The position numbers and the translations under genes are program-made. From a virus: 24,404 nucleotides of DNA. The stretch lies in the UHGV virus genome UHGV-0166778, one strand, 5' to 3'. Shown here piece by piece: positions 1-24,246 of this stretch. How positions within the stretch are numbered: the stretch's first letter is position 1; every line of letters begins with the position of its first letter. Under the pieces are notes generated by a model that did no database searches, was not told the DNA's origin, and worked only from the letters and a program-made list of their open reading frames with translations.

Positions 1-1103
1 GGTACCTGATTTTCTCCTGTCCCCACATTCCTCTTTGCCGCTTCTCCCAAACCAAGGTATGTGAGAAGACCAGTTACATCCTTTCCACTCAAATTAGTCA
101 GCGTATTGTCCAGCGGTTGTTTACCTGCCAGTGCATTAAGCATTGTCGTGGCAAAGTTCGGGTCATTCCCCAGCGCCGCCGCCAGTTCGTTCAGTGTATC
201 CAGTGCCGCAGGTGCAGAACCCACCATTGCCGCAATCGCCGATTTCACAAATGCCGTGGTGGCAATTTGTGTATTGTTGACCGACTGTGCCGCAGTAGGT
301 GCGGTTGGCGTTCCGGTGAGTGCCGGACTCGACAACGGCGCTTTTAGTGCCAGCGCATTGTTAATGGTGGTACTGAATTTCGGATCATTGTTAATGGCTG
401 CGGCTATTTCTTTCAGCGTGTCCAGCGTGGCTGGCGCACCATTAATAAGAGCCGTCAGAGCCGCCTGAACAAACTCGGTGGTCGCAATCTGCGTGGTGTT
501 ATTCCCTGCTGCTGGCGTTGGCGCTTTGGGTGTCCCGGTAAACGTCGGACTTTCTTTGGGTGCATACTGTGAATGCGGGTCCGGTGCGGCAAGATGTTTT
601 GCCATCTGATCATCCGCGTACACCTTCAGCTCCAGTGCCTTGTCATCCACATACTTGCGGGTTGCCAGCACTACAGCAGGGTCGATTTTCAGGGTGATAT
701 TGTCCGTGCTGCTGGTAATCAGCACCATGCGCACGGTCTGAGTGCGCCCGCTACCTTCAGCCAGTTGCGGCTTATAGCTTTCCGGGCAGTTGCCCACGGC
801 AATCAATGCCCCGGACTCATCAAACAAGCCCACTTCACGTATCCACCAACCGCCCTCGTTTTCAGGGATCACCTGTTCGGCAATAATCTGACTGCTGTTC
901 TGCGGGTCGATATAGAGCATATTCAGCGCAGCCCGGCGTTTCTCATTTACCAGTGCAGTCTGCTTTGAGTCTGGCGTTGGCAATACTCCGCCGCCATCGC
1001 CGACCGCCATATGGGTAATTTTTAGCGGCACACCGAGCGCGGCGGCGCTGGCAAGTTTCGCCGCGCCAATATCCGTCAGCAGGGTATAAAATTTTGTGCT
1101 CAT
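1..1103 (-). CDS. H: Tail fiber protein (P2 gpH-like), partial; 3' end runs off the window
   Basis: Minus-strand frame open from ATG at 1103 to the window edge; translation begins MSTKFYTLLTDIGAAKLASAAALGVPLKITHMAVGDGGG, with repeated TQIATT.FV..A and ALDTL.E.AAA..NDP blocks typical of P2-family tail fibers. Start overlaps the gpI stop (ATGA). Confidence 0.8.
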   Translation of the reverse strand, partial: MSTKFYTLLTDIGAAKLASAAALGVPLKITHMAVGDGGGVLPTPDSKQTALVNEKRRAALNMLYIDPQNSSQIIAEQVIPENEGGWWIREVGLFDESGALIAVGNCPESYKPQLAEGSGRTQTVRMVLITSSTDNITLKIDPAVVLATRKYVDDKALELKVYADDQMAKHLAAPDPHSQYAPKESPTFTGTPKAPTPAAGNNTTQIATTEFVQAALTALINGAPATLDTLKEIAAAINNDPKFSTTINNALALKAPLSSPALTGTPTAPTAAQSVNNTQIATTAFVKSAIAAMVGSAPAALDTLNELAAALGNDPNFATTMLNALAGKQPLDNTLTNLSGKDVTGLLTYLGLGEAAKRNVGTGENQV

Positions 1104-1705
1104 GGATTCACTCTCATTGTGTCAATAACATGGACCGCCCCGCCTTCATGCGCGGTGCCGCCAGAAATAATTGTTTCGTTGATATACGGATAGATCGTGA
1201 TTTCTTCGCCAAGATAGCTGGCGGCCCCCACCCAATGCGGACCGCTGGTCTGCAGATTGATGGACATGCCGATCATGTGACGGCTACATGGTTTGGCATC
1301 GCTTATCAGCCGCTCAAGTTCCAGATAGGTATCTTCAGTGATGCCCTGGTCCTGCACGCCGATATCCAGGCGAAACGTGCCCGGTGTTTCTCCGGTCTGC
1401 CACCACTCAATAATGCGGATCAGGAATCCGAACGGTTCCACCACCCGCCGCACGGCACTGGTAGTTCCTTTATGCTGATGAATATAAAAAGCATCCTTCA
1501 CTACCTGGCGTTTGACGCTTTCTGTCCAGCCCTCGTCCCAGCGATCCACAGAGAACGCCCAGGCGAGATAAGGCAGGAAGCTGACCGGACAGGTAGCCGG
1601 ATTCCACAAGTCACGCAGCGGCACCTGCAGATCAGAAATCCCGCTACAGGTTTGCGCCAGTCGGCGCTCCAGTGAAGTTGAACCCGGTGGCAGCAGACTA
1701 TTCAT
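1100..1705 (-). CDS. I: Baseplate assembly / tail protein (P2 gpI-like)
   Basis: 201-aa ORF (MNSLLPPGSTSLERRLAQ...) in the position between J and H of the P2 late operon; start overlaps the J stop. Confidence 0.8.
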   Translation of the reverse strand: MNSLLPPGSTSLERRLAQTCSGISDLQVPLRDLWNPATCPVSFLPYLAWAFSVDRWDEGWTESVKRQVVKDAFYIHQHKGTTSAVRRVVEPFGFLIRIIEWWQTGETPGTFRLDIGVQDQGITEDTYLELERLISDAKPCSRHMIGMSINLQTSGPHWVGAASYLGEEITIYPYINETIISGGTAHEGGAVHVIDTMRVNP

Positions 1706-2606
1706 CCGTTCCTCCGTTGGTTACGCTCCACTGCGTACATGATGCCGCCTGTGTTTTGTTCAGGACCACATCCGCCAGCGGAGAAGCCAGTTCCACACGT
1801 TGAACACCCTCAACATGCAGAGCAGCAAAGATGGCGCTACGGCGAATATCCCGACCAAGCCTCGTCTGGCTGGCAATGTACTTCTGCAGACTGGCTTTTG
1901 CCGCTGCCATTACCGGCTCTGCTTCCGGTCCCGGATAGAGAAAAATGGTGGCTTCCACGCGATACGGGATGATTTCTGCGCTGCGAACCGTAAGACGGTC
2001 AGCCACCGGGCGGACGTTCTCACTGTTCAGAGCTTTTTCCACCACGTCCAGCAGGTCTTTTTCTGCAGTTCCATCGCCTTCGCGGCTAAGGACAGTCAGC
2101 ACCACCTCTGCAGGTGCCGGGCTGGTTGCACTGGCATCCGCCACCCGACCGTCGGCGCTTCGGGCATGAAATTCATAAGCTGCAGTTGGCCCCGCAACAG
2201 AAAGCCCTTCAAAGGCTGCAGGCACACGCAGGCGTAACGCTTCATCGCTTTCCATCACAGCTGCAACGGGCGGCACAGCATCATTATCAGCAGGCGTCAC
2301 CGTCAGGCGTGTCACGTTGTAGTTGGCAGCGAGCTGGTCAAGATCGCCGCCCATCGCGTAAGCCACCATCACCGCCTGCGCGGCTTCGTTAATGCGCTGG
2401 CGCAGAAGCAACTCACGGTAAGCGTTCTCCTGCAACAATTTAGTGACGGGTTCAGATTCCAGTTCCAGCGTGCGGATCACGACTTCCTGCTCATCTTTCG
2501 GATGAAGCGCCACAAATTCTGCCTTGCGTTCGGCAAGCAGCGTCTCAAAGTCCGGCACATCCACAATCTGCGGTGCAGGCAACTGCGAAAGGTCAATCAC
2601 TGCCAT
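1698..2606 (-). CDS. J: Baseplate assembly protein (P2 gpJ-like)
   Basis: ORF 1698..2645; likely true start is the internal MAVIDLSQLPAPQIVDVPDFETLLAERKA, resembling the gpJ N-terminus; short overlap with the W stop. Confidence 0.85.
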   Translation of the reverse strand: MAVIDLSQLPAPQIVDVPDFETLLAERKAEFVALHPKDEQEVVIRTLELESEPVTKLLQENAYRELLLRQRINEAAQAVMVAYAMGGDLDQLAANYNVTRLTVTPADNDAVPPVAAVMESDEALRLRVPAAFEGLSVAGPTAAYEFHARSADGRVADASATSPAPAEVVLTVLSREGDGTAEKDLLDVVEKALNSENVRPVADRLTVRSAEIIPYRVEATIFLYPGPEAEPVMAAAKASLQKYIASQTRLGRDIRRSAIFAALHVEGVQRVELASPLADVVLNKTQAASCTQWSVTNGGTDE

Positions 2607-2952
2607 TCTCTGCTCCTGTTGATACGGAAAGGGACACAGGCACACCGTTATTCCGCCGCCCGGTCAGCTCCACCACCATAGAACCGTCAAAGTTGCTGTT
2701 GATGGTAATGGAATCCAGCGTCAGCCGTGGCTCCCAGCGACTCAGCGCCACATACACTGCCGACATGACCTGCAGGCGTAATGCCGGATTTTGTGGCTGA
2801 TCTATTAAAACCGACAGGAGGGATCCATATTCCCGGCGGGCAATGCGGCTACCCTGCGGTGTCAGCAGAATGTCCCGCACCGACTGGCGCAGATGATCAA
2901 TATCAGTAATGACTTTGCCGCTGGTATTGTTCATCCCGCTATAAAGCGTCAT
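2593..2952 (-). CDS. W: Baseplate protein (P2 gpW-like, GPW/gp25 family)
   Basis: 119-aa ORF MTLYSGMNNTSGKVITDIDHLRQSVRDILLTPQGSRIARREYGS..., between V and J. Confidence 0.85.
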   Translation of the reverse strand: MTLYSGMNNTSGKVITDIDHLRQSVRDILLTPQGSRIARREYGSLLSVLIDQPQNPALRLQVMSAVYVALSRWEPRLTLDSITINSNFDGSMVVELTGRRNNGVPVSLSVSTGAENGSD

Positions 2953-3527
2953 ACCGGGCCTCCGGTTGTATCGCCGCCTTTCAGGACGCCAGTATGCTGA
3001 TGCGCATCAACCACAATCCCGTTAGAGCTCATCGCTCCGCCGCCCTGGGTAACGCCACCATTGATCACCACTTCGCTGTTAATACGCGTGCGGTCAGCCT
3101 CCAGCACAAACTCACTGGTTTTCAGGGTGATATTGTCAGCGGCCTCAATGACCATTGATTTGATGCCCCTAACATACCAGCGCCCGGTGGCGGGTTCGTA
3201 TTCAAACCAGCCGCCGTCCGGGTATTCCGTCACGTTGCCGTCCTCAGAGCCTGAAGGTGGCGGAAACTGGTTTGAGTAGACCGCAGGCAGGGCAAACGCG
3301 GTTTCCAGATTGCCGCCAAGGCTGAACAGCACAACCTGCTCACCCACAGACGGTTTCCACCAGGTGCGCGATTTGCCCGCGCGCAGTGTCAGCCAGTTAA
3401 TCCAGTTGGTTTCGAGGTCGCCAGTTTTCACCCGACACAGCCAGTTTGCCCTGTCCACTTCGGTGACTACACCTGTGCGGATCAGGTTGGTGATAAGGCG
3501 CATGATTTCGGTTAATTGTGCGTTCAT
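2949..3527 (-). CDS. V: Baseplate spike / tail protein (P2 gpV-like)
   Basis: 192-aa ORF MNAQLTEIMRLITNLIRTGVVTEVD...WWKPSVGEQVVLFSLGG...SSNGIVVDAHQHTG, close to the gpV pattern as recalled. Confidence 0.85.
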   Translation of the reverse strand: MNAQLTEIMRLITNLIRTGVVTEVDRANWLCRVKTGDLETNWINWLTLRAGKSRTWWKPSVGEQVVLFSLGGNLETAFALPAVYSNQFPPPSGSEDGNVTEYPDGGWFEYEPATGRWYVRGIKSMVIEAADNITLKTSEFVLEADRTRINSEVVINGGVTQGGGAMSSNGIVVDAHQHTGVLKGGDTTGGPV

Positions 3528-6464: not shown

Positions 6465-7115
6465 TCAGCGGCTGTCATTGCGCAGTCTGCGCTCCAGCTG
6501 CTGTTTGTCTTTTTTCACGCCACAGCGGGGATCGAGCTGTAACGCATGGTTGAGATGATTAAGGGCGGAAGCCGGATTGCTTTCACTCAGGACAGCGCCA
6601 ATCGCTTTATGCAGACGTGCCCGTGACTGGTCCGGCATATCCAGACCGTCTGTCAGCTCCAGCGTCTGCAGCAACAGATCAGCATCAAAGCCGGTGGCGG
6701 CAAGCATTGCGCTCTGCGCTGCGTCTGCCATTTCCTCTGCCAGCACGGTCTGCACGTTGCGGTTACCCAACGGCATCACCCAGCCATGACGCAGGGCGTG
6801 ACGCCCGATCTCCAGCGCCCCGGCATAATCTCCGGCATCAATGCGCCACAGCATCACGTACATCAGCACGTCATCCTGTTGCGCGCCTCCGCCAGCCAGG
6901 ACACCCTCTGCCCAGGCGGCGTATTTCGGCAGCAGTTCCACCTTGATTTCCGCTTTTTTGACCGTGGACTGAACGCCCTTGAGACGGCGGCGGTCTTCCG
7001 CCAGTTGCAGCAGCATCAGGTCATAGCCCGACGCGTGGCGAACACTGCCACCCTCGCGAGCGGCCTGTTCAGCCTGAACGCGCAGGCGATGCTGCCGTGC
7101 GGGACTCAGGCTCAT
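6465..7115 (-). CDS. M: Terminase endonuclease (small) subunit (P2 gpM-like)
   Basis: 216-aa ORF MSLSPARQHRLRVQAEQAAREGGSV..., immediately downstream of N. Confidence 0.85.
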   Translation of the reverse strand: MSLSPARQHRLRVQAEQAAREGGSVRHASGYDLMLLQLAEDRRRLKGVQSTVKKAEIKVELLPKYAAWAEGVLAGGGAQQDDVLMYVMLWRIDAGDYAGALEIGRHALRHGWVMPLGNRNVQTVLAEEMADAAQSAMLAATGFDADLLLQTLELTDGLDMPDQSRARLHKAIGAVLSESNPASALNHLNHALQLDPRCGVKKDKQQLERRLRNDSR

Positions 7116-9169: not shown

Positions 9170-10936
9170 ATGAACACCACACTGACACCCGCAGATCTCG
9201 ATCCCCGTCGGCAGGCCATGCTGCTGTACTTTCAGGGATACCGCGTAGCCCGCATTGCTGAAATGCTGGGCGAGAAAGTTGCAACCGTTCACAGCTGGAA
9301 AAAACGCGACAAGTGGGGTGACTATGGGCCGCTGGATCAGATGCAGCTCACCACCGCCGCACGCTACTGCCAGCTCATCATGAAGGAGCACAAAGAAGGG
9401 AAAGATTTCAAAGAGATTGACCTGCTGGCGCGCCAGTCTGAGCGCCACGCGCGGATCGGCAAGTTTAACAATGGCGGCAACGAAGCCGACTTAAACCCTA
9501 ACGTCGCCAACCGCAACAAAGGCCCGCGTCGTCAGCCGGAAAAGAACGTTTTCACTGATGAACAGATTGAGAAGCTGGAAGAAATCTTCCATTCCTCCAT
9601 GTTCAACTACCAGCGCCACTGGTGGGAAGCCGGAAAAACCAACCGCATCCGCAACCTGCTGAAGTCACGCCAGATCGGCGCGACCTTCTATTTTGCCCGT
9701 GAAGCCCTGATTGACGCCCTGCTTACCGGACGTAACCAGATTTTCCTTTCTGCCAGTAAGGCTCAGGCCCACGTCTTTAAACAATACATCATCGACTTCG
9801 CCAAAGAAGTCGAGGTGGAGCTAAAAGGCGATCCGATGGTGCTTCCTAACGGAGCCACGCTTTACTTCCTCGGCACCAATGCCCGCACGGCCCAGAGTTA
9901 TCACGGCAACCTGTATCTGGATGAATATTTCTGGATACCGAAATTCCAGGAGCTGCGCAAAGTGGCTTCCGGGATGGCTATTCACAAAAAATGGCGACAA
10001 ACCTATTTTTCCACGCCATCCAGCCTGACCCACAGTGCTTATCCGTTCTGGTCCGGTGCGCTGTTCAACCGTGGACGCAACAAAGCTGACAAGGTGGACA
10101 TCGACCTGTCCCACAGCAATCTGGCCCCCGGCCTGCTGTGCGCAGACGGGCAATACCGCCAGATAGTCACCGTGGAAGATGCGGTGCGCGGCGGCTGTAA
10201 CCTGTTCGACCTCGACCAGCTACGCATGGAGTACAGCCCGGACGAATACCAGAACCTGCTGATGTGCGAGTTCGTGGACGATCTCGCGTCCGTGTTCCCG
10301 CTCAGCGAACTGCAGGCGTGCATGGTGGACAGCTGGGAAGTCTGGACCGACTTTCATGCACTGGCCCTGCGCCCGTTTGGCTGGCGCGAAGTGTGGATCG
10401 GTTATGACCCGGCAAAAGGTACGCAGAACGGCGACAGTGCCGGATGCGTGGTGGTGGCTCCGCCAGCCGTGCCGGGTGGTAAGTTCCGCATTCTTGAGCG
10501 TCACCAGTGGCGCGGGATGGACTTCCGCGCCCAGGCTGACGCCATCAAAAAACTCACCGAACAGTACAACGTGACCTATATCGGTATCGACTCAACCGGC
10601 GTTGGTCACGGGGTTTATGAGAACGTGAAAGCATTCTTTCCTGCCGTCCGGGAGTTTGTCTACAACCCCAATGTTAAAAACGCCCTGGTACTCAAGGCCT
10701 ACGACATTATCAGCCACCGCCGTCTGGAGTTTGACGCCGGGCACATCGACATTGCGCAGTCATTCATGGCAATCCGTCGCGCCACCACCGCCAGCGGCAA
10801 CCGCCCGACCTATGAAGCCAGCCGCAGCGAAGAAGCCAGCCACGCCGATCTGGCCTGGGCAACGATGCACGCACTGTTTAACGAACCGCTGCAGGGCGAA
10901 TCCGCCAATACCAGCAATATTGTGGAGATTTTTTGA
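9170..10936 (+). CDS. P: Terminase ATPase (large) subunit (P2 gpP-like)
   Basis: 588-aa ORF MNTTLTPADLDPRRQAMLLYFQGYRVARIAEMLGEKVATVHSWKKRDKW..., P2 gpP-like in length and N-terminus. Confidence 0.9.
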   Translation: MNTTLTPADLDPRRQAMLLYFQGYRVARIAEMLGEKVATVHSWKKRDKWGDYGPLDQMQLTTAARYCQLIMKEHKEGKDFKEIDLLARQSERHARIGKFNNGGNEADLNPNVANRNKGPRRQPEKNVFTDEQIEKLEEIFHSSMFNYQRHWWEAGKTNRIRNLLKSRQIGATFYFAREALIDALLTGRNQIFLSASKAQAHVFKQYIIDFAKEVEVELKGDPMVLPNGATLYFLGTNARTAQSYHGNLYLDEYFWIPKFQELRKVASGMAIHKKWRQTYFSTPSSLTHSAYPFWSGALFNRGRNKADKVDIDLSHSNLAPGLLCADGQYRQIVTVEDAVRGGCNLFDLDQLRMEYSPDEYQNLLMCEFVDDLASVFPLSELQACMVDSWEVWTDFHALALRPFGWREVWIGYDPAKGTQNGDSAGCVVVAPPAVPGGKFRILERHQWRGMDFRAQADAIKKLTEQYNVTYIGIDSTGVGHGVYENVKAFFPAVREFVYNPNVKNALVLKAYDIISHRRLEFDAGHIDIAQSFMAIRRATTASGNRPTYEASRSEEASHADLAWATMHALFNEPLQGESANTSNIVEIF

Positions 10937-11964
10937 TGGGAAAGAGTAAGAAAAACCGCGCTGCGGCGACGAATCAGCTCAAGCATAAAAGCCAGACTTC
11001 AGCCGAAGCATTCAGCTTTGGCGATCCCGTTCCTGTTCTGGACCGCCGTGAACTGCTGGACTATGTGGAATGCGTACAGATGGACCGCTGGTATGAGCCG
11101 CCCGTCAGCTTTGACGGACTGGCACGAACCTTCCGCGCTGCCGTGCATCACAGCTCACCGATTGCAGTAAAATGCAACATTCTGACCAGTACCTACATCC
11201 CTCACCCGCAGCTCAGCCAGCAGGCTTTTTCACGTTTTGTGCAGGACTATCTGGTATTTGGTAACGCCTACCTGGAGAAACGCACGAACCGCTTCGGTGA
11301 AGTTATCGCCCTTGAGCCTGCTCTGGCAAAATACACCCGACGCGGGTTAGACCTGGATACCTACTGGTTTGTGCAATACGGTATGACAACCCAGCCGTAT
11401 CAGTTCACGAAAGGCAGCATTTTTCATCTGATGGAACCGGACATTAACCAGGAGATCTACGGCCTGCCCGGCTATCTTTCTGCCATTCCGTCCGCCCTGC
11501 TCAATGAGTCCGCCACGCTGTTCCGCCGCAAGTATTACATTAACGGTAGTCATGCAGGCTTCATCATGTACATGACCGATGCTGCGCAGAACCAGGAGGA
11601 CGTGAACAACCTCCGCAATGCAATGAAAAGTGCCAAAGGTCCGGGTAACTTCCGCAACCTGTTTATGTACTCGCCTAACGGCAAAAAGGACGGCCTTCAG
11701 ATCATCCCTTTGTCAGAAGTTGCGGCGAAGGATGAGTTTCTAAATATCAAGAACGTGAGCCGGGATGACATGATGGCAGCACATCGCGTTCCGCCACAGA
11801 TGATGGGGATTATGCCGAATAATGTTGGGGGGTTTGGGGATGTGGAGAAGGCTAGTAAAGTATTTGTTCGTAATGAGTTATTACCGTTGCAAAAAAGATT
11901 ACAGGAAATAAACATATGGCTAGATGAGGAAATAGTAACATTCGATAGTTATCAGCTTACTTGA
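10933..11964 (+). CDS. Q: Portal protein (P2 gpQ-like)
   Basis: 343-aa ORF overlapping the P stop (ATGA). Confidence 0.9.
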   Translation: MMGKSKKNRAAATNQLKHKSQTSAEAFSFGDPVPVLDRRELLDYVECVQMDRWYEPPVSFDGLARTFRAAVHHSSPIAVKCNILTSTYIPHPQLSQQAFSRFVQDYLVFGNAYLEKRTNRFGEVIALEPALAKYTRRGLDLDTYWFVQYGMTTQPYQFTKGSIFHLMEPDINQEIYGLPGYLSAIPSALLNESATLFRRKYYINGSHAGFIMYMTDAAQNQEDVNNLRNAMKSAKGPGNFRNLFMYSPNGKKDGLQIIPLSEVAAKDEFLNIKNVSRDDMMAAHRVPPQMMGIMPNNVGGFGDVEKASKVFVRNELLPLQKRLQEINIWLDEEIVTFDSYQLT

Positions 11965-11970
11965 AAAAAC

Positions 11971-11998
11971 GGAGTCAGATATTCTGACTCCTTATTTC
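11971..11998. terminator. Bidirectional rho-independent terminator between convergent Q and the TM-TIR gene
   Basis: Stem ggagtcag / ctgactcc with a 5-nt loop, flanked by an A-run on one side and a T-rich tract on the other. Confidence 0.5.
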
Positions 11999-12599
11999 AA
12001 CCAAGAATGGACTTCAATGACAAATTGAGCTTATCAATTAATTTTTCATCCTCATAGTTTACAGACTTGATGTTTTTGAGCATCGCAGGCAATTCAGCAT
12101 CACCAATTATCACAGGAATTATAGGAACATAGTTTTCATCTTTTACCGTAGCTTTACGGAGAAAGCCCTCTACCTCCTTTCTTATATATGACTCCATATC
12201 TTCATTAGACAGAAGCAATATAGCCGCAGCGCTATTGTCTATAGCCTGATTAATTTGCTTTTCAATAATCTGCCCGGGCAATATGTTATTTTCATCAAAC
12301 CATACATCAAAACCTAACTCATTAAGCTTACAAGTTATTTGACGGGCCTTATCTTTTTCTTGTACGGGATACATTAGAAATATTTGCTTTCCTTTTTTAA
12401 CGGCCTTTAGTCTTCTTTCCCTTAATTTCATTAACACAATCAAACTCAGGCCAGAATAGGCAAAAGATAATCCAATAACGGAGATGATAATCTCATCATT
12501 AACTCCTTGAAATAAATATGGGAGCCGTGGAATAAGAGCCATAAGAAACCCAACAACAGCCAATGCAATTGAAATAATATAAAGAGTATTTTTTTTCAT
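11997..12599 (-). CDS. Membrane-anchored TIR-like domain protein (two N-terminal TM helices plus C-terminal TIR-like fold)
   Basis: 200 aa. N-terminal hydrophobic helices (LYIISIALAVVGFLMALIP; IIISVIGLSFAYSGLSLIVLM), then IFLMYPVQEKDKARQITCKLNELGFDVWFDENNILPGQ...AIDNSAAAILLLSNEDMESYIRKEVEGF, which follows the TIR beta-A / alpha-A / beta-C pattern. AT-rich, unlike the flanking phage core. Confidence 0.6.
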   Translation of the reverse strand: MKKNTLYIISIALAVVGFLMALIPRLPYLFQGVNDEIIISVIGLSFAYSGLSLIVLMKLRERRLKAVKKGKQIFLMYPVQEKDKARQITCKLNELGFDVWFDENNILPGQIIEKQINQAIDNSAAAILLLSNEDMESYIRKEVEGFLRKATVKDENYVPIIPVIIGDAELPAMLKNIKSVNYEDEKLIDKLNLSLKSILG

Positions 12600-13016
12600 T
12601 TACACACCCTTAATCCACAAAACAAAGGAAGCAAAAAATAATATGCCGACTAAATTACACCCAATACATAAAACCCAAATTTGACCTTTTGGATTTCCTG
12701 TTCGCCCTTCCCAATCTTGATGAAAAGACATGATCCCCAGTAATACAAAAAGAGAGAAGGCAAGAAAGCTAGTAGTTCCAATGTACTGATTAACCACTTG
12801 GTTAACCGTGGTTACTGTTTGAACAGTTTTAGTCAAATCATATAAATTCAACAATGATGCACCAATTGTCGATAATATCAACTCATTCCCAAAGTAAAAA
12901 TCACTCTTTTGCCAACCAGAGGATCTGGCAAGTTTTTTTACAAAAGCCCCACATAGAATCATCAACAATGGAAAAATTAAAGCAACAACGTATTTATTAC
13001 CAATGACATCAATCAT
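12600..13016 (-). CDS. Small polytopic membrane protein, function unknown; first gene of an operon with the TM-TIR gene
   Basis: 138 aa with about four hydrophobic helices; its stop codon directly abuts the ATG of the TM-TIR gene; AT-rich. Confidence 0.55.
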   Translation of the reverse strand: MIDVIGNKYVVALIFPLLMILCGAFVKKLARSSGWQKSDFYFGNELILSTIGASLLNLYDLTKTVQTVTTVNQVVNQYIGTTSFLAFSLFVLLGIMSFHQDWEGRTGNPKGQIWVLCIGCNLVGILFFASFVLWIKGV

Positions 13017-13206
13017 TAATCATCATTCCTTCAATAAATCGCATCATGCCTTTTTGTTTTTAGCTTCATCCACAACCAGTCACCATCGACATCAATATAT
13101 CACATACTAAATATATAATAATTTTATCGAACTATACAAAGCAACCAAGAGTAAAAATAACATACTCTGCCTTACATTCGAAAGGACATTATCATCCCAA
13201 CGCGCG

Positions 13207-13225
13207 CTCGTATCCCCGCCACGCC
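13207..13225 (-). other. Candidate cos (cohesive end) core
   Basis: Reverse complement reads GGCGTGGCGGGGATACGAG; the first 13 nt match the P2/186 cos overhang as I recall it (GGCG[A/T]GGCGGGGAAAGCA). An isolated GC-rich block in an AT-rich intergenic region, at the map position expected for cos. Confidence 0.3.
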
Positions 13226-13270
13226 TGCCCGCTTTATGTAGTAGTTTTCATGCAGGTGCATGATCTACGC

Positions 13271-13294
13271 AAAAGCCCGCCAGTTCTGGCGGGC
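13271..13294 (-). terminator. Rho-independent terminator downstream of the 13343..14185 gene
   Basis: Stem gcccgcc / ggcgggc with a short loop; on the minus strand it is followed by TTTT. Confidence 0.4.
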
Positions 13295-13342
13295 CTTAGC
13301 AAAAACGATCCTCAAACGATCATGCGATCTCATGCAGCATAG

Positions 13343-14185
13343 TCATGCACGATCATTTGACTCAGCATCTGCTGCACGCTTGCTGCGCGAAGATGCACTT
13401 TTACTACCAATCTTTCGACAGTTCTTTCTATCCCTGGCTTCATTTTCTTTAAATTTGTTATATGTCTCAGTATCAAAAAACGAAATTGTTTCAACCTCAT
13501 CTTTTGGTATGAGCACACGGAAATCTTCGATATTAAGCCGAGACATTCCACTTATCACACCACTATCAAGATAATGTTGGTGATAGTTAGTCGTGATACT
13601 AATCGTTAGATCATCTTTATCCCGATATCCGCTTAACATCGGGAGAAGTTCAAGGTGTTCTGAAAGCCCGTTTTCTAACGCCGGACAAGTAACAAGACCA
13701 ACATAGATTTTGCGAGACGACAGAGTTGCTATGATCGGAAACTGTCTTGCGGACGCTTCCATGAGTAATGATTCGAAAGCGTTATTACCCACAGCTTTAG
13801 CTAAGGCATCCCAGCGACGATCTCCACGTGATGTGCGTAACTTATTTCCAAAACCTGAAATCGCAGCGAGGACAATTGAAATCATAACCCATGCTATCTG
13901 TTTGATTTCATTTATTCTTTGAAGTTTGTCTTTCGATGAAGACAACATGCCGTTAAAACTGTCAGGTGTTAGATTCAAGGCATTAGCCAGCCAACGAAAC
14001 CCTCCGCTGACGTTCAAAATAAAGGTGAAAAAACCGCCAAGGAGAAAAAAAACGATACCCCAGGCAGCCACAAAAAAATAAGCGTCCCAGCCGTTGGAAC
14101 GCTTATATCGGTATCTTGTTGAAAGTGATAGGTTTACATAAATAAAACCACTAACCAAAATCACTGCTAAAAGTAATGTTGCCAT
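13343..14185 (-). CDS. Membrane-anchored protein of unknown function (N-terminal TM helices plus about 170-aa soluble domain)
   Basis: 280 aa with hydrophobic segments (LLLAVILVSGFIYV; YFFVAAWGIVFFLLGGFFTFIL; IAWVMISIVLAAISGF) and a charged Ser/Arg/Lys-rich C-terminus; AT-rich; start overlaps the stop of the upstream small gene (TAATG). Confidence 0.5.
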   Translation of the reverse strand: MATLLLAVILVSGFIYVNLSLSTRYRYKRSNGWDAYFFVAAWGIVFFLLGGFFTFILNVSGGFRWLANALNLTPDSFNGMLSSSKDKLQRINEIKQIAWVMISIVLAAISGFGNKLRTSRGDRRWDALAKAVGNNAFESLLMEASARQFPIIATLSSRKIYVGLVTCPALENGLSEHLELLPMLSGYRDKDDLTISITTNYHQHYLDSGVISGMSRLNIEDFRVLIPKDEVETISFFDTETYNKFKENEARDRKNCRKIGSKSASSRSKRAADAESNDRA

Positions 14186-14400
14186 TATCTGGTTCTATTA
14201 GTTTTCTCTTTTACAGTGCTCGTTTTGATGCCTTCAAGCTTATCCATCTGTGCCTTGATGGCATCCATTGCTCTTTTGTTAGACAAGTCTACGGACACAA
14301 AACCATCTTTACTAAGATTGAGTTTGTCCTGGTTCTCTTTAAGAACCCTTGCCAGACGTTCAACTGGGTTACCCAGGCTAAATGCGGCGATGCTTGACAT
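14185..14400 (-). CDS. Small hydrophilic protein of unknown function, translationally coupled to the downstream membrane protein
   Basis: 71-aa ORF MSSIAAFSLGNPVERLARVLKENQDKLNLSKDGF...; AT-rich cargo region. Confidence 0.45.
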   Translation of the reverse strand: MSSIAAFSLGNPVERLARVLKENQDKLNLSKDGFVSVDLSNKRAMDAIKAQMDKLEGIKTSTVKEKTNRTR

Positions 14401-14670
14401 AACTCCCCCTTTTCACATGGCGCGGAAGTCTACACTCCGACGCCTACAACCTCAACAGATTATCTTTAAAATTTAGACAACAATATCATCTGTTGATTTC
14501 GTTACTTAAACTTAAGTTCAATGCGCTCGATCATGCAAGCGGTTTCTTAAGAACTGTTAATTTCCTGGCATATATAGTGGTTAAGGTAACAAATTGACAC
14601 TAACGCCTCGCATAGCTCGTTGTTCAACCTTGCTGACGCCAGAAGCAAGTTCAGACGCCAGCAACGTTTC

Positions 14671-14904
14671 TTAATGCAGCCAGCTGTCGTCTTCCCACAC
14701 CTTCTGCATAATTTTCATTACTTGTTTCCTTTCTTCGTCCAGTTGCAGTCCGGTCAGTTCCACACCGTTAGAGCTACCTTTACGGATACGAATTACCGTT
14801 TTGGGATACAGGGGGCGCAGATTGCGGTAAAGCTCGGATTCAAAGGCGTCCAGGGTAGACTGGCTAATCTTCTGCTCTTTATCGATCATTATTTCAATGC
14901 GCAT
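14671..14904 (-). CDS. dinI: DinI-family protein
   Basis: Internal start MRIEIMIDKEQKISQSTLDAFESELYRNLRPLYPKTVIRIRKGSSNGVELTGL...VWEDDSWLH fits the DinI length and pattern (MRIE... N-terminus, acidic W-containing C-terminus); GAGGTG ribosome-binding site upstream. Confidence 0.75.
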   Translation of the reverse strand: MRIEIMIDKEQKISQSTLDAFESELYRNLRPLYPKTVIRIRKGSSNGVELTGLQLDEERKQVMKIMQKVWEDDSWLH

Positions 14905-14914
14905 AAAAGTCACC

Positions 14915-15103
14915 TCAACTGATGACATCCATTGAGCGGTTGTATTCGTGGGTTCTGATTTTTGCCATAAGTTCATCTGTCAGTTCAGAAACCCACTGCA
15001 AAGCCAGCCCCTTCTCTTCATCACTACACTCACTAGCCGCTACAAGCTTAAGAAAAAAATCAATGCGCTGGAGCTTCAAAGACTCCAAAAAATAGTCCTG
15101 CAT
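14915..15103 (-). CDS. Putative Tum-like antirepressor (small protein transcribed from the LexA-controlled promoter)
   Basis: 62-aa ORF with a GGAGGA ribosome-binding site, directly downstream of a LexA-box promoter and upstream of dinI; the position matches tum of phage 186. Confidence 0.4.
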   Translation of the reverse strand: MQDYFLESLKLQRIDFFLKLVAASECSDEEKGLALQWVSELTDELMAKIRTHEYNRSMDVIS

Positions 15104-15255: not shown

Positions 15256-17670
15256 TTAATACAGGTTTCGCCACTTATCATCTTCCTGCAAACGCTGGTT
15301 CCGATAGAAGATACGCAGGCCTGCTCCTGACGGAATACTGCCGCCGCGAAGCAGTAAATCGACCTCTTTCTCGCTGCCATCAAATCCCCTGGACTTCAGT
15401 TCATACACGAGCTGCTGTCGCTGATGATCTGTAATTCGCTGTTTGTAGTCTTTACGCCGTTTCGGTTTCACCAGGCGTAACCTTGCTGCCAGTTCCCGGC
15501 GCTCTTTTTTGCTCATACTGTGCAGGTAATCGTGCAACTCCTTGTCATCCATGCGGGTGATATCCGTTCTGGTATCTCCATCAGCTGATTTGTCTTTCCC
15601 TTGTTGGTACAAATTTTCAGCAAGGGGACAGTTATTGCCACGAGTCCAAGGGGCGCAAGCGCCCTGGTCGGCTGCCGCCTCCTGAACGTCAACGGCCTTA
15701 CGAACCATTTTCCACTTCACTGCATGAGTGCAGATCTTGCCCTCTGCAATGGGTGACCAGATGCCATAAATACGAATACCGTGATCGCCATAGGCGGTCG
15801 GCTCTTCGTTGATTTCATAAGCGGTTCTGATGAGGTGATATTTGCGGGGAACCAGTACGCCGCCCTGCTTCATGATGTAGGAGGCAAAACAACCAGCATC
15901 AGCAGCAGCCAGGATGGCATCAAGGCGCGGGTTATCCAGTACCGGCGCACCTGCTTTTTTGTCACCCTGTTGCCTTGCCGCCTGACCAGCCAGCAATCGC
16001 AGTTCACGGTAAGCCTGACGCCCCGGAATGCCAAAGAAGCGGAATTGCTGAACACGATGCAGAGACGCCCAGGCATTAACGTATTCAGCGTTATCACGCA
16101 GGGATTTACCCGTTTCCTTACTGATCTCGCCAGCCAGACCACGCCCGTCAATATTCTTACTGATATATTTCGCAATGTAGCTTGTCGGCGTTCCTTTGCG
16201 CGGGTTTATCAGCTCAGACTTAAAGCGTGGCCCCGTGTTATTGCCCAGCTCCTCGCGGTCTTCACGGATGGCAAACTTACGCAACAATGCAGTAATGGCG
16301 CGGCGGTCTTTTTTGCGCATGAAACACAACAGGTGCCAGTGAACTGTGCCGTCATGATGCGGCTCAGCCACCCGCACGCCATACCAGCGCAACCCGGCTT
16401 TGTGCATAGCCTTACGAAATGCAGCAAACATGCCGACCAGATAATCGCTGCTTTGTCTTACTGTCGCGTTGGTCCAGGTCGGGTTTGGCCTGCCGTTATT
16501 TAGCGTGGAATGGAAACGTGACGGACAGGTGATGGTGTAGAAAACGGCGCAGTCACCACGCATTTCCGCGATAAGCTCCAGGCCTTTAACACAGGCCATC
16601 ATCTCGTTGCGGCGATGCGCCGGGTTGCTGCTGCTGGCGTTTACCACATCCTCCATGTTCAGCGTGTCGCCGTCTTCGTTCACCAGTTCATGAGAACGGA
16701 AAAACTCCAGCGACTTACGGCGCTGCTCACGTTTATGCATCACGGCTTCATAGCTGACATAGGGAGATGCTTTTTTGCTGACCAGGCAGACAGCACGCAA
16801 CTGCTCTTCCCGCCATTCGCAACGCATCTTCCATAATTTCCGATACCACCAGTCGGCGCACAGCATACGCGCCAGCGAACCCGGAATGAGTTCATAAGGC
16901 ACAGGTTTGCGGCGGTTTCTTTTCCGGCGGAGTTGCTCAAACGCTGGCGGTATGACATCCAGTCGCAGGGTTTCTGCAGCCACCTTTTCCCATGTCTTGC
17001 GGATTTCTTCTGGCTTAACATCATCGGAGGCGTACAAATCACCACAAGCGGCATCAAGACACATGCTCATATGCGCAGCGACAAGGGTAGACAGGCGTTT
17101 CACCTGATCCTGACTCATTTCAGGCAGGATCATCAGACCGTCCAGCCCTTCATGGCTTGCCATAAAACGAAAAGATGCAGATAGCTGGCTGTCGCGTACA
17201 TGCTCCAGTCGTTCCAGACATGGCTTAATCGTCTCACGCAAATAGCGGGAATAAGCCTTTGGCCTGCCCAGGCTGCTGAAATATTCAATACGTTGCATCA
17301 GCGGCTTGCTGATATGGGAAGGCTGGGCGTTGACGTCAGTCAGAATGACCATGTCTGGATTAAAACGCTGCTGCTCATGCGCCATCTTTGCCCGGCTAAT
17401 GAGCTTATCCTGCTCCATTTCGCGTTGGACAGGATCACGGGATTCATTAAAGAAATAACGCTCCCAGACCTGATCACTCAGTGCCTCGCGGCGCAGTTGT
17501 TCCTGCTCGTTATCAGTAGCGTACAGAGTGATCAGGTTTGAAAGCGCAGAAACCGGCGCAACTTCCGCCGGGTCCAGATAAGGGTTAATGGCCTTTTTCG
17601 GGCTGTTCCATGAGAACGATGCGGCAGCTTCGTTAAAGCTGCAGCAGTTGTTCATATCGGCATGACTCAT
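15256..17670 (-). CDS. A: Replication initiation endonuclease (P2/186 gpA-like)
   Basis: 804-aa ORF in the conserved early-operon position; size and position match gpA. Confidence 0.85.
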
Positions 17671-18524
17671 GCACGTACTCCGTACACGGCAGAACTATCC
17701 ACGCCACGCGAATAATCAAATCCCACCCAGCAGCGCGGCCCGGAAACAGCAATGATTTCTGTTGCTGATTTACCCTCGCCAGCTGCCACACCGATGCTGC
17801 GTTTTGCCTTGATGTAGTGGTGAGTAAAATTGCGATACAGCGAACGGATCAGGGATGTGTCACTGTTAGAAACAATGACCGGATGTCCTTCTGATGACCG
17901 ATGTTCAAGAACAGATGCCAGGTGATACTGGTCATCTTCAGTGAAGCCGTCAGTGTGATAGCCGGAAAACGTACCGTCATACGGCGGATCGCAATACACC
18001 ACATCCCCCGCCTTCAACATCGCCAGCGTTTCATCAAAGCTGGCGCAGATAAACGTTGCTCGCTGGGCCTTTTCTGCAAATGCGCGAATTTCTTTTTCAG
18101 GGAAATACGGATTTTTATAATTACCGTAGGGAATGTTGAAATGCCCGCTCTTGTTATAGCGACATAAACCACGGTAACCGTGACGATTGAGATACAGGAA
18201 ATATACCGCTTTCATGAAATCAGTAATTTCAGTTGAGTAATTAAACTCCTGCCTTATGTTGTAATAAGCCACCTCCCTGTTTGCGATCTCAAATAAAACT
18301 CTGGCGCGAGATATAAACGATTCACAATCAGCGGCAACCTTTTTATAGAGGTTGATTAAATCAGGATTAATATCCGCAACCAGATAGCTGGGATAATCCG
18401 TCTCCATCATCACAGCACAGGAACCCGCGAAAGGTTCAACCAGTCGCGGGCCAGCAGGAAGATGTTTTTTCAGTTCGGACATTATGGCTGTTTTATTTCC
18501 CGCCCATTTCAGGATGGTGCTCAT
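17667..18524 (-). CDS. dam: DNA adenine (N6) methyltransferase, Dam / D12 class
   Basis: Contains [12 protein letters not shown] (AdoMet motif) and DPPY (catalytic motif). Start taken at MSTILKW, overlapping the upstream stop, rather than at the longer ORF start at 18584. Confidence 0.85.
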
Positions 18525-18748
18525 ACAGCACCTCCGTTGTAATGTTTGCCTTTCAGCTCTGCGATTTCCTGACAGGTAATGCAAAGCTGCACACCCGGAA
18601 TGGCACGGCGGCGTGCTGGCGGAATTGGCGCTTCACACTCAATGCAAAGCACGCGGGACACGCCCGGCGTTTTGGCACGGGCAGCACGGATATGGCGTTG
18701 GCGTTCTTCTTCAACGCGCTGCTGTACGAGATCCATTGCATCAGCCAT
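18521..18748 (-). CDS. TraR/DksA-family C4 zinc-finger protein
   Basis: 75 aa with CIEC-x17-CITC in the C-terminal half. Confidence 0.7.
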   Translation of the reverse strand: MADAMDLVQQRVEEERQRHIRAARAKTPGVSRVLCIECEAPIPPARRRAIPGVQLCITCQEIAELKGKHYNGGAV

Positions 18749-21015: not shown

Positions 21016-21648
21016 ATGTTAAACATCAGAATGGGTTCCGATACGGGAGGTAAGGCAGCTATTGGAAGGCTGCTTGAGGCTTATGGATTCACAACTAAGC
21101 AGGCATTAAGCGAGCACCTGAATGTCTCAAAAAGCACTATGGCAAACAGAGTGTTACGTGACAGCTTTCCTGCTGACTGGATAATTCAGTGCGCACTAGA
21201 AACCGGTGTTTCGTTGCTTTGGTTAGCTACAGGACAGGGAAGCATGAAAGGAGGAGCTGAGCCTGAGAAAAGTTCTCATAATGAGAACAAACAAGCAATT
21301 AAACCGTTATCCAAACTCATAACTCCAGCTATTCCTAAAGGAACCCTGGAGAATGGACAACTCAGTATTGATGAAGAGATTTTCCTAGACCACAGCATAT
21401 TACCTGCAGATTATGAAGAATTGATGTTCTTAGAAACCCCTACTAATTGTTATCTCATCGATAAATCAATTAAACAGGTCAGCAATGGATTCTGGCTTAT
21501 CAATATTGATGGAATGATTATTGTTGCAAAAATCATGCGGATTCCCGGCAATAAGATTGTAGTAAATCAAGATGAAGCGTCTTTCGAGTGCTCTACTGAT
21601 GATGTGGAAGTTATTGGGCGTGCAGTCAAAGTAATAAAGAGTATCTAA
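21016..21648 (+). CDS. cI: CI immunity repressor (phage 186 CI family)
   Basis: 210-aa ORF with an N-terminal helix-turn-helix region (LLEAYGFTTKQALSEHLNVSKSTMANRV...CALETGVSLLWLATGQG) resembling 186 CI; followed directly by int. Confidence 0.8.
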   Translation: MLNIRMGSDTGGKAAIGRLLEAYGFTTKQALSEHLNVSKSTMANRVLRDSFPADWIIQCALETGVSLLWLATGQGSMKGGAEPEKSSHNENKQAIKPLSKLITPAIPKGTLENGQLSIDEEIFLDHSILPADYEELMFLETPTNCYLIDKSIKQVSNGFWLINIDGMIIVAKIMRIPGNKIVVNQDEASFECSTDDVEVIGRAVKVIKSI

Positions 21649-21650
21649 AC

Positions 21651-22664
21651 ATGACTGTCAGAAAACAGCCAAACGGTAAATGGTTGTGCGAGTGCTATCC
21701 CCATGGACGCAATGGCAAGCGCGTGCGTAAGCAATTTGCTACGAAAGGCGAAGCCATTGCTTTTGAAAGCTTCACAATGGAAGAAGTGAACAAAAAGCCA
21801 TGGCTGGGGGAAAAGGAAGATCGGCGACACCTATCAGAATTAATTGAGCAGTGGTATTCCCTGTATGGTCAAACACTCGCAGACCCCAAGCGCCTCATGG
21901 CGAAACTTAGAATTATCTGTAATGGTCTAGGCGATCCCATCGCCTCAGAGCTGACAGCCGGTGATTTTACTAAATACCGAGAAGCGCGGCTAAAAGGTGA
22001 AGTGCGAAATGAAGAGGGCACGCTTATGTCGCCCGTTAAGCCCCGCACTGTAAACCTTGAACAGCGCAACCTATCATCTGTTTTTGGCACACTGAAAAAG
22101 TTGGGCCACTGGTCAGCCCCCAATCCGCTTGCCGGGCTGCCAACATTTAAAATTGCTGAGGGTGAACTGGCGTTCCTGACCCCGGAAGAAATTAAACGTC
22201 TGCTGGATGCCTGTGCTGATTCTCAAAGCCCCAGTCTACTTTTAATTGCAAAAATATGCCTGGCCACCGGCGCGCGCTGGAGTGAAGCCGAAAATCTGCA
22301 GGGCCATCAGTTATCGAAATACCGGATCACCTATACCAAGACTAAGGGCAAGAAAAACCGTACCGTGCCGATATCTCAGGATCTGTATGACGAACTCCCT
22401 AAGAACAGAGGGAAGTTATTCACTCCTTGCAGAAAAGCCTTTGAACGAGCAGTAAAGCGAGCTGACATTGAGTTACCAGAGGGCCAATGCACCCACGTTC
22501 TGCGCCATACATTCGCCAGCCATTTTATGATGAATGGTGGTAATATTTTGGTTTTACGAGATATTTTAGGCCACTCTGATATAAAAATGACTATGATTTA
22601 TGCACATTTTTCCCCAGAGCATCTTGAAGATGCAGTAATAAAAAACCCTCTGGCTAATTTATAA
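21651..22664 (+). CDS. int: Tyrosine integrase (P2/186 family)
   Basis: 337-aa ORF with a C-terminal catalytic region (ARWSEAENL...HVLRHTFASHFMMNGGNILVLRDILGHSDIKMTMIYAHF) showing the R...H-x-x-R...Y signature. Confidence 0.9.
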   Translation: MTVRKQPNGKWLCECYPHGRNGKRVRKQFATKGEAIAFESFTMEEVNKKPWLGEKEDRRHLSELIEQWYSLYGQTLADPKRLMAKLRIICNGLGDPIASELTAGDFTKYREARLKGEVRNEEGTLMSPVKPRTVNLEQRNLSSVFGTLKKLGHWSAPNPLAGLPTFKIAEGELAFLTPEEIKRLLDACADSQSPSLLLIAKICLATGARWSEAENLQGHQLSKYRITYTKTKGKKNRTVPISQDLYDELPKNRGKLFTPCRKAFERAVKRADIELPEGQCTHVLRHTFASHFMMNGGNILVLRDILGHSDIKMTMIYAHFSPEHLEDAVIKNPLANL

Positions 22665-22690: not shown

Positions 22691-23476
22691 ATGCTGTCTG
22701 AAATAGAAATCAATGATGAAATTCAGCGAGGCAACATTTTTGATCCATTAACGGTATTAAATGGAACATTTAAAGTTCAATCTGCAAGCATTGATCTCTC
22801 TGTAAAAACAATACATATACCAGACTGTCAAGACAATAAAAAAACACGTAACAACCATATCCTGATGCCAGGGGAAACTGTAATATTAGAGTTAAATGAA
22901 AAATTCCAACTTGCAAAAAATTTAGCTGGTGTAATATTCCCAAGAAACACACTATCAAAAAATGGAATTATCATGACGAATCCAGGGCATATTGACCCTG
23001 GATATAATGGCATAATTTCAATATATCTTGTAAATATGTCAAAAGAACCATTCTCATTGACACAAAATTCTGCAGTAGCCCGAATGTTATTATTTAAAAC
23101 AATAATACCGACTAAAGGTTACCAAGGAAAAATCGTAAATAAATTGGATGATGATCAACTTTCTAGAATGGGAAAGGATTTTGCAGGACTTGATAAACGA
23201 CTTCCGAAAGAAATCAATAAAATCATTGCGAAAAAAACTGGCTTTATAATTGCGATAGCAGCCTTAATGCTAACGTTGATAACCCTAGCAATTCCTTTCT
23301 TATTTCAAATAGTATCCAGTAATGTCAGTAGTACAAAAGATCTTGAATTAACAATAAAAGTTCAACAAAATGAAATAAATAGCCTAAAAAGCACCGTTGA
23401 ATTACTAAAAAATGCTAAATCAAACGAACCAAAGGTTGATGCTAAAGTAAGCACCCCAAAAGCTATACGGGAGTAA
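22691..23476 (+). CDS. dCTP deaminase (Dcd)/dUTPase-fold protein with a C-terminal TM helix and coiled-coil tail
   Basis: 261 aa. The N-terminal ~185 aa show Dcd-family landmarks (LNGTFKVQSASIDLSV; PGETVILELNEKFQL; GIIMTNPGHIDPGYNGIISIYLVN); followed by a TM segment (FIIAIAALMLTLITLAIPFLF) and a Lys/Glu-rich coiled coil. AT-rich; ThyX start codon 2 nt after its stop. Confidence 0.7.
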   Translation: MLSEIEINDEIQRGNIFDPLTVLNGTFKVQSASIDLSVKTIHIPDCQDNKKTRNNHILMPGETVILELNEKFQLAKNLAGVIFPRNTLSKNGIIMTNPGHIDPGYNGIISIYLVNMSKEPFSLTQNSAVARMLLFKTIIPTKGYQGKIVNKLDDDQLSRMGKDFAGLDKRLPKEINKIIAKKTGFIIAIAALMLTLITLAIPFLFQIVSSNVSSTKDLELTIKVQQNEINSLKSTVELLKNAKSNEPKVDAKVSTPKAIRE

Positions 23477-23478
23477 AA

Positions 23479-24246
23479 ATGATAAAAATCTCTGATTTAT
23501 CAGTAAAATGCATATCACACCCTTCATTTGAAAGTAATGTTTTTGATGATTTTTTAAACACATCATCATTGCAATGGGTTCGCAAAGGGCAGGCGACCGA
23601 AGCTGAGCTTCTGGTAGAGGCCGCTGGCAGGCTATGTTATATGTCTTTTGGAGAGGATAAGCAGTCTCCACGGACTACAAGTCAATATATCAACAATTTA
23701 ATTATTCAAGGGCATGAAAGTGTCTTAGAACATTTGAACTGGACCTTTTTAATTACTGGGGTATCTCGTGCATTTACACACCAGCTAGTTCGGCATAGAG
23801 CTGGTTTTTCATATAGCCAGTTATCCCAACAGTATCATGATGAATCCGATGCTGAATTCGTAGCCCCTATAGAAGTAAAAAATGACCCAGAATTGTTTAA
23901 GTCATGGTGCCAACATATTGAAAGTAGTCTGGATTTTTATAAGCAATCCTTGAAAAAAATCCGTGAAAACCAATCGTATGAGAACAAAAAAGAAAAAATG
24001 CGGGCCCTAAGAAGCGCTTCTCGCTCTATATTGCCTAATGCAACCGAGACAAAAATAATCGTCACAGCAAATGCTCGCGCAATTCGACACTTCTTCGAAA
24101 TGAGAGGAGCAATACAGGGTGACTATGAAATGAGAACAGTTTCAGAAAAACTTTACGATATTGTAACTCAAGATGCCCCTGCCTTGTTCCAAGATTTCGA
24201 AAAAGTCAATGGAGGAACGGCGCACGTTAAGATAATAAAACAATAA
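23479..24246 (+). CDS. thyX: Flavin-dependent thymidylate synthase (ThyX family)
   Basis: 255 aa with the ThyX signature region GHESVLEHLNWTFLITGVSRAFTHQLVRHRAGFSYSQLSQQY (RHR-x7-8-S motif) and C-terminal ETKIIVTANARAIRHFFEMR; strong GGGAG ribosome-binding site. Confidence 0.85.
   Translation: MIKISDLSVKCISHPSFESNVFDDFLNTSSLQWVRKGQATEAELLVEAAGRLCYMSFGEDKQSPRTTSQYINNLIIQGHESVLEHLNWTFLITGVSRAFTHQLVRHRAGFSYSQLSQQYHDESDAEFVAPIEVKNDPELFKSWCQHIESSLDFYKQSLKKIRENQSYENKKEKMRALRSASRSILPNATETKIIVTANARAIRHFFEMRGAIQGDYEMRTVSEKLYDIVTQDAPALFQDFEKVNGGTAHVKIIKQ

Follow-up and report, generated by a model that had tools for sequence, protein, structure and literature searches.

What lies between the two small gene cassettes in the middle of this P2-family prophage, and could the short stretch that separates them be the site at which the phage genome is cut for packaging? 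The window analysed here, by which we mean the whole stretch of 24,404 nucleotides (24.4 kb) of virus genome UHGV-0166778, is a P2-family prophage in the orientation reverse to that of the P2 map. Comparison of its sequence with annotated phages and prophages makes it very probable that positions 13201-13350 are the cos site of an E. coli P2-family prophage that has a 186-type CI/int module and a cos of the Fels-2/SEN8 type.

Gene order and state of the prophage

The segment proposed as the cohesive end is placed between the portal gene and gpA, as in P2, and the same portal-cos-gpA order is found in Fels-2, RE-2010 and Klebsiella phages (Table 1). Three complete E. coli genomes match the region 11900-14500 at 100% identity. 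E. coli 1002W03 carries a complete prophage of ∼34.5 kb at ssrA in which the cos region is identical to that of the window. The same cos and both cassettes are also retained in E. coli O157:H16 98-3133 (locus L143, 29549-30370), where the prophage has lost the region from the tail fibre to the portal, so that the portal is truncated and gpP, gpO, gpN and gpM are missing. The presence of this cos is thus no proof of an active phage.

Such a headless prophage with an identical cos-plus-cassette region raises the question of whether the block in the window is itself a relic, homologous to cos and no longer used for packaging, the more so as the window covers part of the tail region only. This is very unlikely, given that the window holds full-length open reading frames for gpM, gpN, gpO, gpP, gpQ, gpA, CI and int, that the identical cos region resides in a complete prophage in 1002W03, and that all of the conserved cos motifs described below are intact in the window.

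Directly after the integrase gene, two plus-strand genes with ∼32% GC (22691-24246) encode proteins of 261 aa (dCTP deaminase/dUTPase-like) and 255 aa (ThyX-like thymidylate synthase). The sister prophages of 1002W03 and 98-3133 lack these genes at the corresponding position, and the pair could be cargo of an integrase-att slot or part of a neighbouring island.

Table 1. Positions of the genes and of the proposed cos elements in the window (strand: +, - or, where none applies, a point).
Feature	Position	Strand	Basis or remarks
Small terminase subunit, gpM-like, presumed cos reader	6465..7115	-	Pfam PF05944 Phage_term_smal, E = 3e-40
Large terminase subunit, gpP-like, ATPase and nuclease	9170..10936	+	Terminase_6N, Terminase_6C, Terminase_5 (PF03237, PF17289, PF06056)
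Portal, gpQ-like, bounding the Q-side cargo slot	10933..11964	+	Pfam Phage_portal; portal in the annotation of an identical E. coli prophage
Q-side cargo, TM-TIR protein and 138-aa membrane protein	11997..13016	-	
TM-TIR protein, 200 aa	11997-12599	-	TIR_2, E = 3.6e-17; weak PADLOC TIR matches; two N-terminal hydrophobic segments
138-aa membrane protein	12600-13016	-	∼4 hydrophobic segments in translation, no family match
Equivalent (proposed limits) of the 55-bp P2/P4 core: CGCGC flank, 19-mer, TGCCCGCTT...TTTTCATGCA	13200..13254	.	
Extended cos (entire conserved island), with a variable cargo slot on either side	13201..13350	.	Class alignment
Cohesive-end segment GGCGTGGCGGGGATACGAG	13207..13225	-	Homology to annotated cohesive ends
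Proximal inverted pair TCATGCA-gg-TGCATGA (inverted repeat I5)	13248..13263	.	ATGCA 25 bp from the nick
GC-rich hairpin GCCCGCCA-gaac-TGGCGGGC, then TTTTG (inverted repeat I1)	13275..13294	-	Folding
Two direct AAACGATC repeats (D3), copies at 13303 and 13314, 11 bp apart	13303..13321	+	
Distal array, three TCATGCR units starting at 13320, 13330 and 13343	13320..13349	+	Proposed terminase-binding array
A-side cargo, 280-aa and 71-aa proteins	13343..14400	-	N-terminal hydrophobic segments in the 280-aa protein
DinI-like protein	14671-14976	-	
Replication protein gpA	15256-17670	-	
D12-class N6-adenine DNA methyltransferase, directly downstream of gpA	17667-18584	-	
186-type CI	21016-21648	+	
Integrase	21651-22664	+	

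A proposed cohesive end of the SEN8 type

Read on the minus strand, that is as the reverse complement, positions 13207-13225 give the 19-nt sequence GGCGTGGCGGGGATACGAG. Reference records annotate a 19-nt cohesive end that reads GGCGTGGCGGGGAAAGCAT in 186 and PSP3 and GGCGAGGCGGGGAAAGCAC in P2 and P4; the ends of P2 and 186 were reportedly sequenced chemically. The window 19-mer agrees with the 186/PSP3 end at 15 of 19 positions, including all of the first 13, and with the P2 end at 14 of 19, including 12 of the first 13 (P4 likewise agrees at 14 of 19). The divergence is at the far side of the overhang, the last six nucleotides being TACGAG in the window versus AAGCAT or AAGCAC in P2, 186, PSP3 and P4. 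An earlier note on this DNA had recognized that the reverse complement of a GC-rich block here starts like the P2/186 cohesive end and then diverges, which is what these alignments show. It had also described that block as the only GC-rich one in the intergenic region; this was mistaken, as there is a second at 13272-13300, which corresponds to the hairpin discussed below. Identity is complete (19/19) with the annotated cos of the Salmonella phage SEN8, which is reported as the same exact 19-mer and was 'identified by annotation' (PMC5427200). By pattern search, GGCGWGGCGGGG has a single occurrence in the window. Searching the window for the full 186 19-mer with up to three mismatches gave no match, because the site differs from it at four positions.

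The ends of phage records provide a second line of evidence. In a BLAST comparison of 13170-13360 with phage records, the matches to four of them (PSP3, SEN8, SEN1 and EtG) run to the last base of the record, and this end falls at 13225|13226 in every case (query position 57 corresponds to window position 13226). With the nick positions taken by homology from the P2/186 record annotation, the plus strand would be nicked at 13206/13207 and the minus strand at 13225/13226, which would leave 19-nt 5' overhangs; since the last six nucleotides differ from the 186/PSP3 and P2 ends, the exact overhang length and cut positions are extrapolated. The exact 19-mer of SEN8 cos, its homology to the P2, 186 and PSP3 ends, the coincidence of four record ends and the location between Q and A together support the suggestion of the earlier note that this region is a candidate cos site.

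A conserved island around a P2-family core

A pattern scan of IMG/VR yielded 120 loci, 112 of which had enough flank on both sides and were combined with the window to give 113 sequences. The 19-mer of the window defines the commonest cos class among them (39 of 113, including the window). Across these 39 same-class loci, identity to the window is ∼90-100% from 13201 to ∼13350 and ∼25%, the background level, on both sides. The sharp drop at either edge indicates that the conserved element is 150 bp long. Towards the portal gene it ends only 6 bp past the cohesive end, and towards the replication genes it runs on for 125 bp. BLAST matches to Fels-2, RE-2010, SopEPhi and Klebsiella phages are similarly confined to 13188/13201-13351. 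The cos block is present in 1,274 of 5,426 complete E. coli genomes.

Within the island, the part nearest the cut is shared more widely. A core of 55 bp is described as common to P2-family cos regions, P2 and P4 included, and is attributed to Ziermann and Calendar 1990 (PMC5694545; PMC3931495). An alignment of ten prophage-type records with the circular junctions that we constructed for P2, 186, PSP3, SEN8 and P4 brought out a shared core consisting of CGCGC, the 19-mer and then TGCCCGCTT...TTTTMATGCA. The earlier note had proposed alignment to P2 and 186 cos as a check, and the core is indeed shared with both. Its equivalent in the window is best placed at 13200-13254, the exact limits being set by inference. 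Over these 55 positions, the window is identical to P2 at 40, P4 at 41, 186 at 42, PSP3 at 43, ENT90 at 44 and Fels-2 at 53, and to Fels-2-type phages in general at 52-53, while the 60-base flanks of the core show 7-30/60 identity, which is at the random level; for P2, 186, PSP3, P4 and ENT90 the flank values are 11-26/60.

The block does not resemble a gene or a structured RNA family. A search of Rfam over the block gave no credible match (best E = 0.09 and 0.63, far below gathering thresholds), no reading frame across it stays open in a majority of the 39 homologues, and its variable columns are split 35/34/31 by codon position, that is with no codon periodicity. Some phage records annotate 'hypothetical proteins' of 49-69 aa over the block. 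In the light of the missing conserved frame and codon periodicity these small proteins are unlikely to be real, and we rejected them.

Repeats at fixed distances from the predicted cut

To the right of the GC-rich block the sequence is packed with short repeats, as the earlier note had remarked. All of the repeats that it quoted are present (catgcagg at 13249, gcatgatc at 13258, gatcatgcgatctcatgcagcat at 13318 and gtcatgcacgatcat at 13342). The stretch 13245-13354 contains 5 CATG, 5 GATC, 4 ATGCA and 5 CATGCR, compared with window means of 0.40, 0.41, 0.24 and 0.10 per 110 bp, and it is the densest 110-bp stretch of the window for all four motifs; the counts of CATG, GATC and CATGCR are each equalled in <0.1% of 110-bp windows.

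The ATGCR units stand out by their positions. In the proximal inverted pair, the ATGCA at 13250 is found in 111 of 113 loci, covering all cos classes, and the TGCAT at 13257 in 75 of 113. The distal ATGCR units, the most informative part of the block, start at 13322, 13332 and 13345, which is 97, 107 and 120 bp from the nick. At least three ATGCR lie within the distal 39-nt interval in 92 of 113 loci of all classes, most commonly at a spacing of 10+13 bp, and each of two control intervals is free of ATGCR in 107 of the 113 loci. The positions are the same in P2, 186, PSP3, ENT90, P4 and P4-like satellites. Hence ATGCR occurs at +25, +97, +107 and +120 from the nick across every P2-family cos class sampled, P4 satellites included. 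The 65-bp spacer between the proximal and distal units is unrelated between classes (window versus P2, only 14/65). Repeats spaced by about a helical turn and held at a fixed distance from the cut, both in phages and in satellites that hijack their terminase, have the look expected of a terminase-binding array, and this pattern supports the assignment of the ATGCR units as putative terminase recognition elements. It is conceivable that their positional conservation across classes is already contained in Ziermann and Calendar 1990.

GATC sites and the phage methylase

The GATC sites behave differently from the ATGCR units with which they are interspersed. All five lie on one side of the cut, spanning 93 bp. 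Two of them, both inside the direct AAACGATC repeats, are conserved within the class (13307 in 37 of 39 members and 13318 in 36 of 39), and the remaining three occur in 3-18 of 39 members each. The AAACGATC copies themselves are kept in 27 and 30 of the 39 members, and the GATC sites that they bear are absent from other cos classes. The suggestion of the earlier note that the repeats could be terminase recognition elements thus gains support for the ATGCR/CATG type, with its fixed positions in all classes and in P4 satellites, and little for the GATC type, with two of five sites conserved and these in one class.

Five GATC in 93 bp nevertheless form the densest spot of the window for this motif, and a D12-class methylase gene, which the sampled P2-class and 186-class loci lack, follows gpA. 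We considered whether packaging might respond to Dam methylation of this cluster, in the manner of the P1 pac site, with the Dam-like methylase of the prophage (17667-18584) serving it. We regard this as improbable. The conservation of two sites in 36-37 of 39 class members, and the finding that most same-class phages with enough flank have the methylase, would fit such a link. Yet three of the five sites are poorly conserved, the class members without a methylase (L027, L029 and L050) retain both of the conserved sites, and phages of other cos classes that do carry a methylase (L104, L129 and L135) have 0-1 GATC. GATC content therefore tracks the cos class rather than the presence of a methylase in the phage, and the exceptions indicate that the association is explained by shared ancestry, from which a GATC-methylase link is inseparable; we therefore rejected it. 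The location of the conserved GATC inside an 8-nt direct repeat suits a protein-binding site. In comparison with the P1-type Dam-regulated packaging site, where conserved GATC repeats flank the cleavage and have to be methylated, two of five sites are conserved here and all are one-sided.

A class-specific hairpin

The hairpin lies between the proximal and the distal repeats and within the second GC-rich block. Its predicted folding energy is −26.2 kcal/mol (z-score −4.8), and none of 200 shuffled sequences folds as well. The median energy at this place is −22.8 kcal/mol in the class, compared with −5 to −13 in other classes and −4.9 in a control interval. The hairpin resembles an intrinsic terminator that would act on transcription coming from the A side, although a simple consensus terminator scan did not list 13275-13294. 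The loop (13283-13286) reads GTTC in the window, SEN8 and SopEPhi and GAAC in Fels-2, RE-2010 and several Klebsiella phages, with the stem unchanged, so that the loop appears to have been inverted between relatives.

A strong minus-strand hairpin and the T-run after it lie 47 nt downstream of the 280-aa open reading frame, and the corresponding region has the promoter of the gene old in P2 and a terminator in 186. This could be taken to mean that the block as a whole is mainly a transcription control element (terminator plus promoter) for the cargo slots and that its likeness to cos is incidental. We give this reading almost no credence. The hairpin covers only ∼20 of the 150 conserved bp and is strong in this class alone, conservation of the 19-mer, core and ATGCR units extends across classes and to P4 satellites that have unrelated neighbour genes, and the consensus scan gave no promoter-like site inside the block.

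A different hairpin, with a 9-bp stem and T-runs on both strands, is located at 11971-11991 directly after the portal stop codon. It occupies the same position as the tQ/tW terminators annotated in P2 and 186 and marks the inner edge of the portal-side cargo slot.

Exchange of cargo on both sides of the block

The TM-TIR cassette lies on the Q side of cos and the second cassette on the A side, as the earlier note had predicted for the case that this is cos, and both the gene order and homologous prophages agree with this arrangement. The TM-TIR cassette is rare, being present in only 3 of 5,426 complete E. coli genomes. The 280-aa and 71-aa proteins of the A side, for which no Pfam or PADLOC match was obtained, recur as a pair in other E. 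coli prophages and in Klebsiella phage ST15-OXA48phi14.1, where they stand beside different portal-side cargo. In E. coli MS14386 the portal-side slot is occupied by retron St85, the replication-side slot again by the 280-aa/71-aa pair, and similarity to the window starts at 13198-13201, which coincides with the left edge of the island and marks the swap breakpoint. In Fels-2, RE-2010, SopEPhi and several Klebsiella phages, different genes flank the same block on both sides. The two cassettes are hence best read as occupying separate slots that flank a fixed junction, in what is a published defence hotspot of P2-like phages.

Terminase lineages and satellites

The terminase proteins differ between cos classes. 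The gpM proteins of the same class are 81-100% identical to that of the window and those of other classes 48-53%; for gpP the values are 84-100% within the class versus 59-70% outside. Portal and gpA co-vary with cos class too, and for that reason the co-variation of class and terminase fails to isolate the protein that reads cos. Locus L104, considered as a candidate natural recombinant that might tell whether the cos class goes with the terminase or with the replication module, has diverged in both.

A P4-like satellite (integrase, ATP-binding cargo, psu and an ogr/delta-like gene) is situated directly beside the identical P2-like prophage of E. coli 1002W03 (locus L144, 36275-41507). Its cos-like site (39760-39776) is of a different class, with an overhang that ends in ...AGAGCAT, and shares with the window the CGCGC flank, the first 13 nt, TGCCCGCTT, ATGCAGGTGCA and the ATGCR triple. 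The cos class of the window was found in none of the 10 P4-like satellites that were present among the 120 sampled IMG/VR loci.

It is possible, though we consider it rather doubtful, that the class-specific middle of the block (the hairpin and the AAACGATC repeats with their Dam sites) and the divergent last six nucleotides of the overhang form a specificity module that selects the terminase lineage, and hence the satellites, able to use the site. Such a module would fit the absence of this class from the 10 satellites and the ...AGAGCAT class of the satellite beside the identical prophage in 1002W03. Were it real, the cos classes of the P2 family would partition the compatibility between helpers and satellites.

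Proposed role of the block in packaging

Homology, position, the boundaries of conservation and the conserved placement of the repeats are direct observations, while the cut positions, the pairing of ATGCR with gpM and the terminator function of the hairpin are inferred. We propose that, after induction and replication, gpM (6465-7115) and gpP (9170-10936) would recognize the block. The 186-type CI and a DinI/Tum-like module point to induction by the SOS response. Recognition would most likely involve the ∼55-bp core together with the ATGCR units, namely the inverted pair at 25-37 bp and the phased triple at 97-124 bp from the nick, all on the replication-gene side. The terminase would then cut the plus strand at 13206/13207 and the minus strand at 13225/13226, giving the packaged genome 19-nt 5' cohesive ends, of which the portal-side end would begin GGCGTGGCGGGGATACGAG. 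Following injection, the ends would be expected to anneal and be ligated, by which cos would be recreated. The hairpin probably halts minus-strand transcription from the A-side cargo and the replication genes before it reaches cos. The block is moreover a fixed junction on either side of which defence and other cargo cassettes are exchanged independently.

The location of cos fixes the ends of the packaged genome. This is useful for prophage annotation and for reading the TM-TIR and 280-aa/71-aa cassettes as exchangeable cargo, and it leaves knowledge of packaging unchanged.

Comparison with known cos sites and cargo hotspots

The closest relatives are the Fels-2-type cos sites of SEN8, Fels-2, RE-2010 and SopEPhi and of Klebsiella Peduoviridae prophages, in which the 19-mer is identical. 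Besides the core, the window agrees with them at 48-62/65 positions of the spacer and 23-30/31 of the distal array. The site has the same portal-gpA position with cargo on both sides, and differs only in what the flanking cargo is. In the records of this type, cos is annotated by homology or is unannotated, and physical mapping of the ends was not found for the class.

With the cos sites of P2, 186, PSP3 and P4, the window shares the GGCGWGGCGGGGA start, the CGCGC flank, TGCCCGCTT...TTTTMATGCA on the A side, the ATGCR triple at equal distances from the nick, adjacency to the portal and a terminase of the P2 gpM/gpP type. In contrast, the class of the window alone has the strong hairpin and the AAACGATC repeats, and the P2-type terminases are only 48-53% (gpM) and 62-70% (gpP) identical to those of the window.

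In the cos of lambda (cosQ-cosN-cosB), a nicking site generates 5' cohesive ends and an adjacent array of short repeats is read by the small terminase subunit. The proposed cos of the window would follow the same scheme of a nick site plus an adjacent repeat array. However, the two are unrelated in sequence, the overhang measures 19 nt here and 12 nt in lambda, the repeat array of the window is on the side away from the terminase genes, and an IHF site was not identified. The packaging substrate also differs, P2 using circular monomers, unlike lambda. A preference for closed circular or monomeric DNA is reported for some phages (PMC6893505).

The cargo arrangement too has precedents. The cos-adjacent hotspot between gpA and gpQ is published (PMC9122126), with Dodd and Egan 1996 given as a further source, and the replacement of DNA beside cos by retrons in 186-related prophages goes back to an earlier report cited in PMC5694545. 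Like the published hotspot, the locus has variable cassettes right beside cos, between gpA and gpQ, with a retron in the slot of a sister prophage, and there is no substantive difference; here both sides are filled, the Q side with TM-TIR and the A side with the 280-aa/71-aa pair. The exact 19-mer, the kind of site, where it lies and the hotspot next to it have each been published or annotated before, so the site belongs to what is already known. What is modestly new in comparison is that the ATGCR positions are constant in all cos classes and the intervening spacer is class-specific, which suggests a division into universal terminase contacts versus possible specificity parts.
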